This document shows, piece after piece, positions 11,728 to 56,592 of a stretch of 64,000 bases of DNA. The notes below the pieces were generated by a model, which had not been told where the DNA came from, made no database searches, and saw nothing but the letters and a program-made list of their open reading frames with translations. Origin of the DNA: a bacterium (GTDB taxonomy: Bacteria; Omnitrophota; Gorgyraeia; Duberdicusellales; 4484-171); NCBI GenBank assembly GCA_021796115.1, contig JAJYOP010000001.1:119755-183754 (forward strand). Reading direction: 5' to 3'. Every line of letters starts with the position of its first letter. Within the stretch, counting starts at the first letter, position 1. A program made the translations under genes and the position numbers.

Positions 11728-11758
11728 TTGCAATCTTGTTAAATATATGTTATACAAT
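11728..11758 (+). promoter_or_regulatory. Sigma70-like promoter of riboswitch cassette 1
   Basis: TTGCAA-N17-TATACAAT. A 32-nt block AATCTTGTTAAATATATGTTATACAATAAATG is identical at 52039-52070. Confidence 0.6.
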
Positions 11759-11789
11759 AAATGGTAAGGTAGTTCTTCAAAATTTATAG

Positions 11790-11937
11790 GAAAAAAGCTA
11801 ATCCTGAGAAACCAGGTGGCGCAACCCACGAACCAGAACATAGTTCGATTCGGTGGGTTGCCCGGCACCGAATTTATTCTGGTGCTGGGCAAAGCTTAAA
11901 GAGCCTAAAGCCGTAAGGCTATGGTAGTCAGCTGCCG
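11790..11937 (+). promoter_or_regulatory. GEMM-I-like cyclic-dinucleotide riboswitch aptamer, copy 1 (carries a ~66-nt insertion)
   Basis: AGCTAATCC..GAAA..GGCGCAA[insert]AAGCTTAAAGAGCCTAAAGCCGTAAGGCTATGGTAGTCAGCTGCCG resembles the Vc2 core GGCAAACC..GAAA..GGGACGCAAAGCC..GGCCTAAACC..CCGGTAGGTAGCGGGG. Confidence 0.65.
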
Positions 11938-11954
11938 TAAAATACAGAATGTTT

Positions 11955-11986
11955 AAAGCCCATAGTTTTGACTATGGGCTTTTTTG
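11955..11986 (+). terminator. Intrinsic terminator (riboswitch expression platform)
   Basis: AAAGCCCATAG-loop-CTATGGGCTTT followed by a T-run. Confidence 0.85.
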
Positions 11987-12182: not shown

Positions 12183-12548
12183 ATGAGAAATAAAAAAGGT
12201 TTTACGCTTATCGAATTAGTCATGGTTATTGTTATCCTGGGTATTTTGGCAGTAGTGGCCGCACCAAAGTATTTTAACCTTTCAGCATCCGCCAACCAGG
12301 CAGCAGAACAGGGTGTAGTGGGCGGAGTAAGGTCCGGTATCTCGAGTTATTTTGCGCAGAATAAAGCTTATCCTCTAACCCTGGACGCAGCTCTACCTGT
12401 TGCCTGTAGTACAGCAAACGCATGTTTTACAAACGTTCTCTCGCAGGGCGGTATCACTTCCCAATGGACAAAGGTTAGTAATACCCTTTATAGAGGGCCG
12501 ACTGGTACATCATACACTTATACTGTCGCAGATGGCTCGTTTCAATAA
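12183..12548 (+). CDS. Type IV pilin (paralog 1, canonical Gly at -1)
   Basis: Prepilin leader MRNKKG|FTLIELVMVIVILGILA with Glu+5; Cys-x6-Cys pair in the C-terminal part. Confidence 0.85.
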   Translation: MRNKKGFTLIELVMVIVILGILAVVAAPKYFNLSASANQAAEQGVVGGVRSGISSYFAQNKAYPLTLDAALPVACSTANACFTNVLSQGGITSQWTKVSNTLYRGPTGTSYTYTVADGSFQ

Positions 12549-13098: not shown

Positions 13099-14769
13099 AT
13101 GGCAGGCAGTTTAGAAATTTTAGATTTGTTATTAAAAGAAGGTTTAATAACTTCGGAACAGATTGAAAAGGCAAAAATAGAGACCAAACGTACCGGCCTA
13201 AGCATAGAGAGGGCTCTGGAAAAGTTAGGTTTTATTACCGAGGAAGATATCGTAAGGACACGGGCAAACGCACTGGGGATACCCTATATGGATTTGGAGA
13301 GCTGCCAAATTGACCCCAATATTATAAAACTAATTCCTGAAAGCATCGCCAGAAAATATAAAATCCTTCCTCTTTTTAAAATCGGCAACAGTCTTAATGT
13401 GGCGATGGTTAATCCCTCTGACATAGTTGCCATGGATCAGATACGAAGATTGATATCCAGCGGAGGGAACCTTGAGGTGATATTAGTAAGCCAAAAAAGC
13501 TTAGAGAAAGTTTTGGATGATTGTTTCGATACGAGCGGCGCAACCGCGAAGATACTTGAATCAATAGATAAGTCCGCCGGAAAAATAAAACAAACAGGGC
13601 TGATAGAAAGCGCCGATGAGGCGCCAGTCATAAAATTGGTCGACTCATTAATCGCCGAAGCAGTAAAAAACAGGGCTTCGGATATTCACATCGAGCCTGA
13701 ACAGGCAAATGTGCGGGTACGTTTCCGCATTGACGGAGCACTGCAAGAGATAAATTTCCTTCCTAAATCACTTCAGGATAATGTAGTGTCACGCATCAAA
13801 GTTTTATCCAAGATGGATATTGCGGAAACCCGCAGCCCGCAGGATGGCAGTATCAATATGAAGCTGGAAAACCGGGAATTAGATATCCGCGTTTCCACCT
13901 TTCCTACTATTTACGGAGAAAATGTCGTGATGCGGCTTTTAGACAAAACTTCGGTTTTGTTCGGGCTTAAGGACCTTGGGCTTTCAGAAGAGACTCTCAA
14001 CCAGTTTAATAAGCTTATCCGCCGGCCAAACGGAATAATCCTGGTTACCGGACCAACCGGCAGCGGAAAAACTACTACTCTATACGCGGCGCTTACCAGC
14101 ATCAGTTCCATGGAAAAGAATATTATTACCATCGAGGATCCGGTTGAATACGAGCTGCCTTTGATTCGGCAAACTCCCGTTAATACCAAAGCGGGGATTA
14201 CCTTTGCTAACGGCTTGCGCAGTATCCTCAGACAGGATCCGGATATTATTATGGTGGGAGAAATTCGTGACAAGGAGACTGTGGAAATAGCTATACAGGC
14301 CTCGCTTACGGGCCATCTTGTGTTTTCCACCCTGCATACCAATGATGCCGCTTCGGCGCTCACGCGTTTAATCGATATTGGCGTTGAGCCATTTTTAGTC
14401 TCAAGTTCCATCGTCGGCATTCTTGCTCAGCGTTTAGTGCGCCTGATTTGCCCAAAGTGCAAGGAGGCCTATACTCCTAGCAGCGATATTCTTGAGGAGC
14501 TTGGTCTTTCCAAACAGGAAGAATATTTACACGGTAAAGGTTGCCCAGTTTGCAAAAAAACCGGCTTTTTTGGCAGAGTGGGCATATTTGAATTGCTGGT
14601 TATCAATGAGGATATCCGTAAAATGATAGAGGCAAAAAGTTCTGCGGATGAGATAAAAAAAAGGGTCATCTCCCTCGGGATGACTACATTACGCCAGGAT
14701 GGCATTAATAAAATAAAACAGGGATTAACCACCGCCGAAGAGGTTGTTAAGGTAACAGAAATAGAATAG
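13099..14769 (+). CDS. pilB: Type IV pilus assembly ATPase (GspE/PilB/MshE family)
   Basis: N-terminal T2SSE_N-like repeats, Walker A GPTGSGKTTT, Asp/His boxes, tetracysteine CPKC...CPVC. Confidence 0.9.
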   Translation: MAGSLEILDLLLKEGLITSEQIEKAKIETKRTGLSIERALEKLGFITEEDIVRTRANALGIPYMDLESCQIDPNIIKLIPESIARKYKILPLFKIGNSLNVAMVNPSDIVAMDQIRRLISSGGNLEVILVSQKSLEKVLDDCFDTSGATAKILESIDKSAGKIKQTGLIESADEAPVIKLVDSLIAEAVKNRASDIHIEPEQANVRVRFRIDGALQEINFLPKSLQDNVVSRIKVLSKMDIAETRSPQDGSINMKLENRELDIRVSTFPTIYGENVVMRLLDKTSVLFGLKDLGLSEETLNQFNKLIRRPNGIILVTGPTGSGKTTTLYAALTSISSMEKNIITIEDPVEYELPLIRQTPVNTKAGITFANGLRSILRQDPDIIMVGEIRDKETVEIAIQASLTGHLVFSTLHTNDAASALTRLIDIGVEPFLVSSSIVGILAQRLVRLICPKCKEAYTPSSDILEELGLSKQEEYLHGKGCPVCKKTGFFGRVGIFELLVINEDIRKMIEAKSSADEIKKRVISLGMTTLRQDGINKIKQGLTTAEEVVKVTEIE

Positions 14770-49980: not shown

Positions 49981-51651
49981 ATGAAACGCAAAATCTGGAA
50001 AATAAAAGAACTTACTCCTTACGCAGCAACTTTGGGGCAAAAATATCAGATATCCGCATATCTTGCCCAAATTCTTCTTAATAGAAATATCCCCGAAGAG
50101 GATTTTCATTCTTTTTTAAACCACGATATAAACTCCATTCATTCCTGCCTGCTTTTGCCTGATATCGAAAAGGCAGTTTGCCGTATAAAAAAAGCAATTA
50201 ACGATAAAGAAAAAATTCTTGTTGTCGGCGACTATGACGTTGATGGGATTATGTCCCTAGCTATTTTTAACGAATTTATTAAAACATCCCCCGCGTTATT
50301 TTCTTTTTATATTCCTCACCGCATAAAAGAGGGCTATGGTTTAAATATCGAAGTCATAAAACAGGCAAAAAGAGAAAAGCGGACTTTAATTATCGCTTTT
50401 GACTGCGGGACTAATTCAAAAGAAGAAATAGAGCTGGCGCATTCCTATGGAATAGACATGATAATCGTTGACCACCATCACCCCAAAGATGGCCGCAATA
50501 ATCCATTTGCTTTTATCAATCCTAAACGTAAAGATTCAAAATATCCTTTTACCGAGTTAAGCGGCGCTGCGCTTTCTTTTAAACTTCTCGAGGCCCTAAT
50601 CGGCAAAGACGCTTTTAGTATGCTTGATTTAGTAGCTCTTTCGCTGGTATGCGATGTTGTTCCTTTAAAAGGTGAGAATAGAACGTTATTAAAAGAGGGG
50701 CTCAATTTATTAAAAACTAATAACCGGCCTGCAGTCTCCGCACTTTGTAAAGTTGCAAAAATAAGAAAAGAAAACATTACTGCATTTCATATCGGTTATA
50801 TATTAGGCCCGCGCATAAATGCCTCAGGAAGGATTGCTTCTGCCAGCGAATCTCTGCGGATGTTCTTAAGCGATGACGAAAAAGAAATTTTCTCTATCGC
50901 GTCTAAACTTCAAGAATATAACCAATTACGAAAAGATATTGAGCTTGATATTTTAAGGGAAGCTGAACAAAAAATAGAGAATAATTTATCGCAAAACTAT
51001 GCAATAGTTGTTGACGGAGAAGGCTGGCATTCGGGAGTTTTAGGTATTGTAGCTTCACGATTAGCCGACAAATATTACCGGCCGTCATTTGTGATTTCGT
51101 TTGAGGATGGTTTGGGAAAGGGTTCCGCGCGCTCGATACACAGCGTGCATCTCATGGAAGCTTTAGAAAAATGTTCCAAGTCCTTGTCTACTTACGGCGG
51201 GCACAGAAAAGCCGCCGGCATAGAAATTTTTAAAGAAGGTTTGGATGAATTTCGCAAAAATATAAACAATTATATAAAAGAGAATGTAGAAGCAAAAGAT
51301 CTAATCCCCATTCTGGACATAGATTTAAAATTAGATTTTAATGATATAAATGTCAATTTTGTAGAGTCCCTGGAAAGTTTAGAGCCTTTTGGCGAAGAAA
51401 ATCCCAAAGCTATGTTTGCCAGTTCTTCCGTCAGCAAAAAGAGTTCTCCTAAAAAAATAAACAGCGGTTATTCTGTCTGGCTTACCGATGGCAAAAAAAC
51501 TTTGGAAGCAGCAGTTTATGATAGTGGATTGCTTGATATCTTAGAATATGCTGATAAGTTTGATGTAGCCTATAACCTGCAGAAAAATACCTACCATAAC
51601 GAGCCGGTTTTAGCTATTAGGGATATTGCTATGTCTAGCGACAAAATTTAG
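49981..51651 (+). CDS. recJ: Single-stranded-DNA-specific exonuclease RecJ
   Basis: DHH family motifs VVGDYDVDGI, FDCG, DHHH. Confidence 0.9.
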   Translation: MKRKIWKIKELTPYAATLGQKYQISAYLAQILLNRNIPEEDFHSFLNHDINSIHSCLLLPDIEKAVCRIKKAINDKEKILVVGDYDVDGIMSLAIFNEFIKTSPALFSFYIPHRIKEGYGLNIEVIKQAKREKRTLIIAFDCGTNSKEEIELAHSYGIDMIIVDHHHPKDGRNNPFAFINPKRKDSKYPFTELSGAALSFKLLEALIGKDAFSMLDLVALSLVCDVVPLKGENRTLLKEGLNLLKTNNRPAVSALCKVAKIRKENITAFHIGYILGPRINASGRIASASESLRMFLSDDEKEIFSIASKLQEYNQLRKDIELDILREAEQKIENNLSQNYAIVVDGEGWHSGVLGIVASRLADKYYRPSFVISFEDGLGKGSARSIHSVHLMEALEKCSKSLSTYGGHRKAAGIEIFKEGLDEFRKNINNYIKENVEAKDLIPILDIDLKLDFNDINVNFVESLESLEPFGEENPKAMFASSSVSKKSSPKKINSGYSVWLTDGKKTLEAAVYDSGLLDILEYADKFDVAYNLQKNTYHNEPVLAIRDIAMSSDKI

Positions 51652-51864
51652 TTTCGCGCTCTTAATGCACTTTGTGCAGACGAAAACCCTTTTTACCTTG
51701 CCCTCAACAATAATCCTTCTTTTTTGAAGATTGGGGAGGAATTTTCTTTTTGTAATCCCGGTAGTTTTTTTACCTACACCGCCTTCCCTTTTGGCTTTAC
51801 CGCGCCTTATTATTGAATTTCCGCCGATGGTTTTTTTACTGCAAATTTCACAACGCCTGCTCAT
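51610..51864 (-). CDS. rpmB: Ribosomal protein bL28 (zinc-ribbon form)
   Basis: Start moved to MSRRCEICSKK (AAGGAG Shine-Dalgarno upstream). CxxC...CxxC, RKFLPNLQ motif. The 3' end overlaps the recJ 3' end by 42 nt, convergently. Confidence 0.8.
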   Translation of the reverse strand: MSRRCEICSKKTIGGNSIIRRGKAKREGGVGKKTTGITKRKFLPNLQKRRIIVEGKVKRVFVCTKCIKSAKLNFVARHSNIPNS

Positions 51865-51928
51865 ATTTATTACTCCTTTTATACACAGATAGTCAGAGAT
51901 GTGGAAGCGGATAATCACAGATGATTTT

Positions 51929-51968
51929 ATCTGTGATTATCTGTGATCTTTATCTGTGGCCATCTGTG
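51929..51968 (+). promoter_or_regulatory. ATCTGTG box array (4 exact boxes)
   Basis: Exact boxes at 51929, 51939, 51952 and 51962. Inverted CACAGAT boxes lie at 51884 and 51916. The perfect hairpin ATAATCACAGAT-GATTTT-ATCTGTGATTAT spans 51911-51940. Confidence 0.6.
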
Positions 51969-52034
51969 TACCCAAAATTATTATAACTATACTTATAAAT
52001 CAGCTATTGTCAAGGAAAATCTGGGGAAATCGTC

Positions 52035-52065
52035 TTGTAATCTTGTTAAATATATGTTATACAAT
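52035..52065 (+). promoter_or_regulatory. Sigma70-like promoter of riboswitch cassette 2
   Basis: TTGTAA-N17-TATACAAT; near-identical to 11728-11758. Confidence 0.6.
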
Positions 52066-52097
52066 AAATGACAAACCAGTTCTTTAAAATTTATACG

Positions 52098-52176
52098 AAA
52101 AAAGCTAACCTTGGGAAATCAGGGGGCGCAAAGCTTAAAGAGCCTAAAGCCATAAGGCTATGGTAGTCAGCTGCCG
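52098..52176 (+). promoter_or_regulatory. GEMM-I-like cyclic-dinucleotide riboswitch aptamer, copy 2 (compact)
   Basis: AAAAGCTAACCTTGGGAAATCAGGGGGCGCAAAGCTTAAAGAGCCTAAAGCCATAAGGCTATGGTAGTCAGCTGCCG aligns by eye with the Vibrio cholerae Vc2 core. Confidence 0.75.
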
Positions 52177-52195
52177 TTATTTTATTTGAAAGGTT

Positions 52196-52226
52196 AAACC
52201 CATAGCTTGTAGCTATGGGTTTTTTA
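52196..52226 (+). terminator. Intrinsic terminator (riboswitch expression platform)
   Basis: AAACCCATAGC-loop-GCTATGGGTTT followed by a T-run. Confidence 0.85.
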
Positions 52227-52290
52227 TTGAAAACCCCACTCGCAATTCGACCAGGTCTTTTTGCAAAGCAAAAAGACAGTCTCATTGCTC

Positions 52291-52355
52291 GGGGGTAATT
52301 CGCACTTGTCTTTTTTCAGACAGGAGTCTGAAAAAAGACTGTGCTCATTAGGAGG
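52291..52355 (+). promoter_or_regulatory. Conserved leader hairpin, copy 3
   Basis: GGGGGTAATTCGCAC, perfect 13-bp stem GTCTTTTTTCAGA / TCTGAAAAAAGAC, GTGCTCATT, AGGAGG Shine-Dalgarno. A related module (AATTCGAC..GTCTCATT) lies at 52244-52288. Confidence 0.6.
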
Positions 52356-52360
52356 TGGCT

Positions 52361-52696
52361 ATGTTAAGGAAAGCCGTGGGTTTACTTATTGTGTGTTTAA
52401 TGGTTATGTCAGTGAGCGCATTTGCCGAAGACAATAATGCGCTTGCTAAATTGGGCAGAGGGTTAACCAATGCCGTGACAGGAGTAGTAGAAATTCCAAA
52501 GCAAATTTATCTTGTTTCGCAGGAGAAAGAACCCATCACAGGCATTACTTATGGCACAGCCAAAGGTATATGCTATGGGTTAATGCGTACGGCAGCCGGA
52601 GTTTATGACACCCTTGCTTTCGCAATCCCTCCTTATGATAAACCGGTTATGGAGCCTGCATTTGTGTTTGAAGGATGGCAGGCGGAGAAAAAGTAA
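52361..52696 (+). CDS. Small secreted protein resembling the exosortase-system-associated TIGR04073 family
   Basis: Start moved to the ATG 5 nt after the Shine-Dalgarno. Signal peptide; KLGRGLTNAVTGVVEIPKQIY, GTAKGICYGLMRTAAGVYDTLAF, EPAFVF. Confidence 0.6.
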   Translation: MLRKAVGLLIVCLMVMSVSAFAEDNNALAKLGRGLTNAVTGVVEIPKQIYLVSQEKEPITGITYGTAKGICYGLMRTAAGVYDTLAFAIPPYDKPVMEPAFVFEGWQAEKK

Positions 52697-55837: not shown

Positions 55838-56494
55838 TTATATTTTCCGTAAAAACGATTCAGCAATTTTTCTTTTGCGCTTAAGGCAATATAAATTAGG
55901 TTTATAATAAAGCCACTGAAGAAGCTTTAAAGACTCTTTTTTGGCAAAGCGCAATTTATGCATATTTGTTTTATCCTTTTTATAGGTGCTTATGTCGCCT
56001 CTTATATTAATAATTTTTTTTAATTTATAGGAAATCCATTTTATATGTTTTTGGCTTGCAGACAGAAAATTAACATACAATCTTTTGTAAATATATTTTG
56101 GATTCTTAAAAGTGTTATATTTATCTTCGTATGTGGCTATAGACCCGTCACCATCTAAATGTCCTCTTAGAAAATCCGCTAAAAATTTATGAGGTATTTT
56201 TATAGCTTTTATCCGAAAAGTCTTACGTGGCATCAGACCAATAGAGATAAGCCAATTATAAAAGCATACATTTCCAAACTGAATCCTATAACATTGTCTT
56301 TTTGTGTAGCCGCCTTTAGGATTTTTAGTAATCTTATTTTTTAGATTTAAGCATTTACGAAAAGTATATAAAAGTTGTTTATCTGAAGAAGTAATGCTGA
56401 TGTGTCTTTTATCTGAAGATAAGTTTCCGTCAGTTGTGATGAGGCCAACTGCATAGGCTAGGTTTGATGTCCATTTGAAACATCTAATGCCCAT
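55838..56494 (-). CDS. LAGLIDADG-family homing endonuclease (two-motif, single chain)
   Basis: LAYAVGLITTDGNL and FLRGHLDGDGSI. Start set at MGIRCFKW, because the upstream part of the tracked ORF runs through tRNA-Leu. Confidence 0.75.
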   Translation of the reverse strand: MGIRCFKWTSNLAYAVGLITTDGNLSSDKRHISITSSDKQLLYTFRKCLNLKNKITKNPKGGYTKRQCYRIQFGNVCFYNWLISIGLMPRKTFRIKAIKIPHKFLADFLRGHLDGDGSIATYEDKYNTFKNPKYIYKRLYVNFLSASQKHIKWISYKLKKIINIRGDISTYKKDKTNMHKLRFAKKESLKLLQWLYYKPNLYCLKRKRKIAESFLRKI

Positions 56495-56508: not shown

Positions 56509-56592
56509 TGCCGAAGGAGGGAGTTGAACCCTCATGGAGTTGCCCCCATCGGTTTTTGAGACCGACTTGTATGCCAGTTCCAACACTTCGGC
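56509..56592 (-). tRNA. tRNA-Leu (CAA)
   Basis: Class II cloverleaf folded by hand: acceptor GCCGAAG/CTTCGGC, anticodon loop CTCAAAA, long variable arm, T-arm GAGGG-TTCAACT-CCCTC. Uninterrupted. Confidence 0.88.

Follow-up and report, generated by a model that had tools for sequence, protein, structure and literature searches.

A GEMM-I riboswitch leader upstream of a TIGR04073-family gene in Omnitrophota: conservation, predicted switching and candidate ligands

Vc2 from Vibrio cholerae, a member of the Rfam family RF01051 (c-di-GMP-I; GEMM-I), is among the described riboswitches closest to an element that we analyzed at positions 52035-52360 of a 64-kb stretch of Omnitrophota DNA (hereafter the window), immediately upstream of a gene of the TIGR04073 family. 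The two share the fold, as judged by covariance model, together with a GAAA tetraloop in helix P2, an 11-nucleotide (nt) receptor in helix P3 (CCUAAG / UAUGG) and the nucleotides A47 and C92. The window copy differs from Vc2 in carrying A rather than G at position 20 and U in place of A23, in having a separate intrinsic terminator as its expression platform, in its Omnitrophota host and in the TIGR04073 gene that follows. The GEMM-Ib riboswitches of Geobacter (Gs1761 and Gm0970), which likewise precede pilus and envelope genes, share both the fold and an A at the equivalent of Vc2 G20. These are known as ON switches, whereas the window architecture would point to an OFF switch; moreover, sister genomes of the window organism carry G20 at the orthologous locus. 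In Clostridioides difficile, the riboswitch Cd1, located before the flagellar operon, combines a GEMM-I aptamer with an intrinsic terminator and turns off a surface-appendage operon upon ligand binding. The predicted platform of the window copy resembles this ligand-induced terminator, but phylum and genes differ, and it is apparently the tetraloop-receptor strand of P3 that competes, not the 3' strand of P1 as in Cd1. Two further families, RF03167 (c-di-GMP-I-GGC) and RF03168 (c-di-GMP-I-UAU), present altered nucleotides at three ligand-contacting positions on the same scaffold; with A-A-C at positions 20, 47 and 92, the window copy is neither GGC nor UAU.

We read the segment as the 5' leader of the TIGR04073-family gene, comprising its own promoter, a GEMM-I aptamer and a separate terminator that would switch the gene off upon binding of either cyclic di-GMP (c-di-GMP) or 3',3'-cyclic GMP-AMP (3',3'-cGAMP), and we give this reading a probability of roughly 0.7. 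Family membership, helix covariation, promoter and terminator conservation, gene identity and the pairing of riboswitch with gene are directly supported. The leader and its gene comprise the following features, with aptamer nucleotides in Vc2 numbering.

52035-52063, + strand: sigma-70-type promoter, a conserved block with -35 TTGTAA (52035-52040), a 17-nt spacer and an extended -10 TGT-TATACA (52055-52063)
52079-52088, + strand: leader motif GTTCTTTAAA (consensus GYTCTTTAAA), between the predicted start and the aptamer, present in most orthologs
52093-52178, + strand: GEMM-I (c-di-GMP-I) aptamer, from the RF01051 match and covariation over 19 orthologs
52103, 52130 and 52174, + strand: aptamer A20, A47 and C92, placed by the Rfam alignment
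52104-52105, + strand: aptamer G21-C22, paired with G45-C46 at 52128-52129
52109-52124, + strand: P2 hairpin with GAAA tetraloop at 52115-52118, from sequence and Rfam alignment
52132-52172, + strand: P3 with receptor halves CCUAAAG (52143-52149) and CUAUGG (52158-52163), from sequence and Rfam alignment
52196-52228, + strand: intrinsic terminator, 12-bp stem AAACCCAUAGCU/AGCUAUGGGUUU with loop UGU, then a U tract (-16.3 kcal/mol)
52229-52349, + strand: post-terminator leader with two hairpins (stems 52255-52277 and 52308-52339), from folding and ortholog comparison
52350-52696, + strand: Shine-Dalgarno AGGAGG (52350-52355) and the TIGR04073-family gene (ATG at 52361, stop codon ending at 52696), from a profile hidden Markov model

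Conservation of the leader and its second copy

By model score, helices and tertiary-contact motifs, the window riboswitch belongs to the known GEMM-I structural class. RF01051 matches 52093-52178 over the full model (positions 1-87), scoring 65.5 bits (gathering score 35; E = 1.4e-10), and the aptamer has the type-1 architecture, with a GNRA tetraloop in P2 and the classical 11-nt tetraloop receptor in P3. This match, the conserved promoter and the hairpin at 52196-52222 with its T run uphold the first-pass annotation of the segment as a promoter-riboswitch-terminator cassette. Any Rfam-based annotation can find this copy, and our findings overturn nothing in current understanding. Beyond routine annotation, the analysis adds the association with TIGR04073 across the clade, the change of G20 to A in both window copies that is specific to this genome, and an unusually high frequency of large inserts in the P2 internal loop.

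To compare the leader across genomes, sequences were gathered by a genome scan (loci L001-L003), by a metagenome DNA-pattern scan with the P3 hairpin (L010-L016) and by look-ups of 12 proteins, namely the window product and 11 homologs; in L031-L033 the aptamer was recognized by eye from sequence. The closest protein relatives in the genome collection come from metagenome-assembled genomes of Candidatus Omnitrophota, with 81%, 76% and 46% identity; the window itself lies within a 283-kb metagenome contig (ENA ERZ27233560 k141_326913). The neighborhood is conserved as argS-recJ-rpmB(-), riboswitch-TIGR04073(+) and tetratricopeptide repeat protein(-)-DEAD helicase(-), and every syntenic ortholog recovered has a match to the Rfam GEMM-I clan just upstream (35-76 bits). 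In L017 (2275-2845) the riboswitch and its TIGR04073 gene together have the opposite orientation with respect to the adjacent helicase and recJ genes, and the cassette therefore moved as one piece. A second type of Omnitrophota paralog, found in an EamA-TIGR04073-LexA context (L027, L028), lacks a riboswitch, and none was found within 3 kb of TIGR04073 homologs in Nitrospira, Geobacteraceae, a deltaproteobacterium or Lentisphaerae; because of these riboswitch-free homologs, the pairing is considered typical of one Omnitrophota clade rather than of the whole protein family.

For the covariation analysis, 19 distinct aptamers were aligned, with large inserts taken out of five of them, and the Rfam consensus pairs were applied. 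Standard pairs fill 94.5% of cells in this alignment, compared with 84.4% in column shuffles, none of which (0 of 500) reached the observed value, and sliding the partners by 1-3 columns as a control lowers pairing to 19-47%. Nine of the 20 consensus pairs have changed on both sides. Most of this covariation sits in P2, where it involves five of six pairs; additionally, the 2-bp helix G21-C22/G45-C46 is replaced by G-U/A-C in L011 and L015.

The window itself contains a paralogous cassette, referred to here as copy 1.

11728-11986, + strand: copy 1 cassette, with promoter block 11732-11763, aptamer 11787-11939 and terminator 11955-11982
11825-11892, + strand: 68-nt palindromic insert on the 3' side of the P2 internal loop, interrupting the copy 1 aptamer
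12183-12548, + strand: pilin gene with an N-terminal methylation motif, downstream of copy 1

That 52035-52226 repeats this cassette, as had been proposed, holds over an end-to-end alignment of the two copies, save for the 68-nt block found only in copy 1. The 32-nt promoter block described as identical, AATCTTGTTAAATATATGTTATACAATAAATG, occurs exactly twice in the window (11732-11763 and 52039-52070), against a chance expectation of none, and the reported single difference in the 3' half of the aptamer stands over 49 nt (11889-11937 versus 52128-52176). The compensatory changes claimed for the P2-like stem did not survive inspection: one C-G pair has become U.U and one G.U has become A.C, both unpaired, while U.G to C-G alters one side only. 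With no conversion of one standard pair into another among the five stem differences in P2, comparison of the window copies was rejected as covariation evidence. In the terminator, the corresponding claim was partly confirmed, in that each copy keeps 12 bp through paired insertions and deletions on both arms. Structural selection on the aptamer, which the two-copy comparison had been taken to indicate, is instead supported by the covariation of helices across the 19 orthologous leaders.

Because of its 68-nt insert, unmodified copy 1 reaches just 32.1 bits and misses the Rfam threshold of 35. A homologous 67-nt insert lies at the same site in L014 (about 1010-1076, - strand), there before a TIGR04073 ortholog; the two inserts share near-identical terminal inverted repeats (CCCRSGAACCAGAAC) and a flanking 4-nt GCAA duplication, and two pairs show compensated changes between them. 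Large palindromic inserts in the P2 internal loop occur in 8 of the 19 leaders, six further orthologs having hairpin inserts of 36-70 nt. In L013, L025 and L029 these lie on the 3' side of the loop, and Rfam scores are down to 35-40 bits; in L001 (2651-2710), L011 and L032 they lie on the 5' side, flanked by a GGYA duplication, with L001 and L011 sharing the termini CCCUGUUAGA...UCUAACGGGG. The copy 1 insert matched no Rfam family. Further copies of the inserts, which a multi-copy mobile element should have, were not found in the window or in 36 loci. The insert of copy 1 and L014 could be an insertion resembling a miniature inverted-repeat transposable element or an added structural domain. 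P2-loop inserts may mark out an expanded version of the GEMM-I architecture whose scores under standard models reach the threshold at best, and, given their frequency, annotation by Rfam threshold misses some functional-looking copies in this phylum.

Upstream of the aptamer, the block cTTGnA-N14-TATGTTATA is found at fixed spacing in 17 of 18 orthologous leaders and can be read as a -35 element, a 17-nt spacer and an extended -10 element (TGn-TATAnn), which would place the transcription start near 52070. The motif GYTCTTTAAA follows 10-25 nt past the predicted start in the window and its orthologs and is anti-Shine-Dalgarno-like. In the window copy, GTTCTTTAAA can pair with the 5' strand of P3, UUAAAGAGC, and in minimum-energy folds it pairs with AAAGAGC of P3 or with the AGGAGG of the gene; as a general anti-aptamer element the motif (GYUCUUUAAA) was rejected, since its pairing with the P3 5' strand is neither maintained nor covarying in orthologs.

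Terminator and direction of switching

The direction of switching, like the transcription start and the ligand, is inferred. After the hairpin at 52196-52222 the terminator continues with the tail UUUUUUAUU, giving a stem-loop plus U tract. An equivalent hairpin and U tract are present in all 19 leaders (-12 to -23 kcal/mol), located 9-21 nt past the aptamer (17 nt in the window copy) and never overlapping it. The stem core CCCAUAG/CUAUGGG is conserved well above what terminator function requires. Its 5' arm, CCCAUAGCU, is complementary both to its own 3' arm and to the receptor strand of the aptamer, AGGCUAUGG, and in about 14 of the 19 leaders this receptor strand is the best aptamer partner of the arm (-7.5 to -12.7 kcal/mol). 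In 13 of the 19, the terminator 3' arm begins with a repeat of a receptor word of 7-11 nt, which in the window copy is GCUAUGG. In L021 the receptor word and its 3'-arm repeat both read AAGCUAUGG in place of AAGGCUAUGG, and in L019 an A-U pair of the terminator has become G-C, with arm-receptor pairing still possible through wobbles.

When transcripts were folded as truncated before the 3' arm, the arm-receptor helix was the minimum-energy solution in L002, L003, L011, L012, L019, L021 and L025. The truncated folds of the two window copies differ from this: here AAGCUA (positions 19-24, which span A20, G21, C22 and U23) pairs with UAGCUU, which ends the terminator 5' arm; this helix is likewise incompatible with a bound aptamer and would therefore point the same way. 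Because the terminator 3' arm repeats the tetraloop-receptor strand while terminator and aptamer do not overlap, ligand-induced termination is the direction that we favor, at somewhat better than even odds. In such a mechanism, a transcript started near 52070 by the sigma-70-type promoter would fold into the GEMM-I aptamer, with a GAAA tetraloop on P2, the matching 11-nt receptor in P3 and the ligand held in the three-way junction. Without ligand, an aptamer sequence, either the receptor strand or, in this genome, AAGCUA at 19-24, would capture the terminator 5' arm, and the captured arm would act as an antiterminator that allows the polymerase to read through into the gene. With ligand bound, the aptamer would be locked and this strand withheld, so that the terminator could form and transcription would stop.

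Several observations weigh against this proposal. Equilibrium folding, as proof of the antiterminator, gave a mixed outcome: for the window copy it assigns the arm-receptor helix a probability of about 0.01, and forcing this helix costs about 2 kcal/mol in the truncated and about 9 kcal/mol in the full transcript. The best partner of the arm lies elsewhere or is weak in L003, L017, L023 and copy 1, and the z-scores of the arm-receptor duplex against shuffled arms are mostly just -2 to -3. The orthologs are also related, and the conservation of CCCAUAG/CUAUGGG could partly reflect common descent. Furthermore, exosortase-linked envelope genes would more naturally respond to c-di-GMP by switching on, and the characterized Geobacter GEMM-Ib riboswitches are ON switches.

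In the opposite proposal, the ligand would prevent termination and thereby turn on the TIGR04073 gene and the pilin gene. Geobacter GEMM-Ib riboswitches with terminators do act in this direction, envelope- or exopolysaccharide-linked genes are often induced by c-di-GMP, and the antiterminator is weakly supported at equilibrium in the window copy. An ON design, however, needs a terminator 5' arm that overlaps a ligand-sequestered aptamer strand, while the terminator is a separate element in all 19 leaders, and the only aptamer segments complementary to its 5' arm are those occupied in the bound aptamer; we thus regard an ON switch as unlikely. Less probable still is an absence of ligand-dependent control, with the promoter-aptamer-terminator unit yielding a short stand-alone RNA and the gene driven from elsewhere, or with the terminator as a constitutive attenuator. 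The 135 nt and extra hairpins between terminator and start codon would fit such an arrangement, as would a terminator-to-gene spacer that varies strongly among orthologs, from about 50 to about 290 nt. Against it, no promoter-like site was found on the + strand at 52227-52360, the riboswitch lies directly upstream of the TIGR04073 gene in every syntenic ortholog and was inverted together with it in L017, and the riboswitch-less paralogs of L027 and L028 have a similar promoter directly before the gene.

The two hairpins of the post-terminator leader are tandem copies of a single unit (52244-52265 and 52297-52318). The second, next to the Shine-Dalgarno sequence, is retained in L001, L029 and L032 with its flanks AATTCGCAC...GTGCTCATT and altered stem sequences, and both are absent from L002 and L010.

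Genes associated with the two copies

The open reading frame at 52361-52696 encodes 111 amino acids, with the motif KLGRGLTNAVTGVVEIP and a signal peptide predicted to be cleaved after AFA (AFA|E). Its product matches the NCBIfam profile TIGR04073, described as an exosortase system-associated protein family, with a score of 90.7 bits (cut-off 50) that covers profile positions 3-75 of 75, in agreement with the earlier description of a signal-peptide protein of about 110 amino acids resembling TIGR04073; homologs are named TIGR04073 by NCBI and JGI. No Pfam match was obtained for the product, and a simple pattern search detected no PEP-CTERM-like motif in the open reading frames of the window. 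The AlphaFold model (pLDDT 79.8) consists of a signal helix, a hairpin of two long helices and an extended tail that carries the conserved motif PPYDKPxxEPxFVFEGW; the confidently modeled helical hairpin gave no significant match in the PDB, with a best E-value of 2.6. The literature collection searched contained nothing on TIGR04073 and nothing joining a c-di-GMP riboswitch with an exosortase.

Copy 1 precedes a different set of surface genes. The pilin gene is followed by genes for T2SSE (with MshEN), T2SSF, a further pilin-like protein with an N-terminal methylation motif, PilM/N, a secretin and an AAA ATPase, which together form an MSHA/type IV pilus-like operon. The T2SSE pilus ATPase of this operon (13099-14769) carries an N-terminal MshEN domain, detected at 66 bits. 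MshEN is a receptor domain for c-di-GMP, and its presence suggests that the organism uses this messenger. Cyclic dinucleotides may accordingly act on the pilus twice, through RNA and through protein.

On its upstream side the cassette is bounded by a divergent gene and its promoter.

51613-51864, - strand: rpmB (ribosomal protein L28), the divergent neighbor of the cassette
51986-52013, - strand: divergent rpmB promoter TTGACA-16-TATAGT (11 of 12 matches), the upstream boundary of the cassette

This rpmB promoter is kept in all syntenic loci. The rpmB 5' leader (minus strand, 51880-51970) is crowded with CACAGAT/ATCTGTG palindromes, and palindromes of the same kind occur in the post-terminator TIGR04073 leader of L011, L013, L015 and L016, which points to a family of palindromic repeats in these genomes. 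Farther downstream, an open reading frame with LAGLIDADG homing-endonuclease motifs (Pfam LAGLIDADG_3, 34.3 bits; 55841-56494, - strand) lies directly downstream of a long-arm tRNA gene (56509-56592, - strand).

Position 20 and the candidate ligands

Immediately 5' of the G-C/C-G helix, where the Rfam alignment has a conserved G, both the window copy and copy 1 carry A. This nucleotide corresponds to Vc2 position 20, and the RF03168 pattern fits the three-letter naming of positions 20, 47 and 92: its 'UAU' consensus differs from RF01051 at nucleotide 20 (U) and at the first C of gCC (U), and keeps the A after CGC. The mapping was checked against this consensus and the literature. Position 20 is A in both window copies (AAAAAAGCUAAC) and G in all 17 other orthologs. 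Among the ligand contacts G20, A47 and C92, the window copy thus retains A47 and C92 and has A at position 20, as read from one assembly; a second assembly that encodes this protein extends no farther than 89 nt upstream of its gene. Judged by sequence, the window riboswitch deviates from the definition of c-di-GMP-I in a single base that contacts the ligand, and both window copies carry the sequence hallmark of GEMM-Ib, an A equivalent to Vc2 G20. Within the ortholog set, L024 (2297-2405) has its best match to c-di-GMP-I-GGC (RF03167; 62.4 bits against a gathering score of 59), and L023, different by one G, to RF01051; the GGC assignment of L024 probably reflects two models scoring alike and not a genuine variant of the binding site.

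In Vc2, G20 recognizes one guanine of c-di-GMP at its Hoogsteen edge, and the cGAMP riboswitches of the GEMM-Ib group have A at this position (PMC6140456). The Vc2 G20A mutant binds the two ligands roughly equally, with a Kd of 53 nM for c-di-GMP and 120 nM for cGAMP, and certain natural GEMM-Ib members are bispecific (PMC6140456), while Gm0970 prefers cGAMP about 1600-fold (PMC8835794). Because A20 is present in both copies and characterized relatives with A bind cGAMP selectively or bispecifically, the messenger may not be c-di-GMP. The sequence is compatible with both candidate ligands, c-di-GMP and 3',3'-cGAMP. The first-pass proposal that one messenger, c-di-GMP, serves both the pilin and the envelope protein is accordingly plausible in its shared control and less secure in its messenger, which may differ.

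The base change may have retuned the riboswitch to cGAMP. In its strongest form this would make both copies cGAMP-selective switches of the GEMM-Ib type, with the pilin operon and the TIGR04073 gene as a cGAMP regulon in this genome, a possibility that we consider less likely than not. The A20 shared by both copies against G in 17 of 17 other orthologs, the position mapping backed by RF03168, the ability of Vc2 G20A to bind both ligands and the selectivity of Gm0970 speak for it. However, A20 alone confers bispecificity in Vc2, and some natural GEMM-Ib members behave likewise; no GG[DE]EF-type motif was detected in any open reading frame of the 64-kb window; and the MshEN domain of the pilus ATPase encoded after copy 1 suggests the use of c-di-GMP. 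Moreover, the window copies also share A23U, and A23U and G20A together create the AAGCUA word complementary to the terminator UAGCUU, so that their role might lie in the expression platform and not in ligand selection. Somewhat more doubtful is a messenger switch within one Omnitrophota clade, in which both GEMM-I copies would have changed G20 to A while sister genomes kept G20, and surface-structure genes would answer to 3',3'-cGAMP instead of c-di-GMP. If true, this would represent riboswitch-based cGAMP signaling in a candidate phylum of ultra-small bacteria and would provide a natural pair of sister genomes with different ligands at the same locus. The occurrence of G20A in both copies of one genome is, in any case, a small and directly testable instance of possible ligand retuning.

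For the protein family, the leader would assign cyclic-dinucleotide input to TIGR04073, a family of no known function. TIGR04073 thereby becomes a candidate part of a cell surface under cyclic-dinucleotide control, beside the type IV/MSHA-like pilus, across this Omnitrophota clade.

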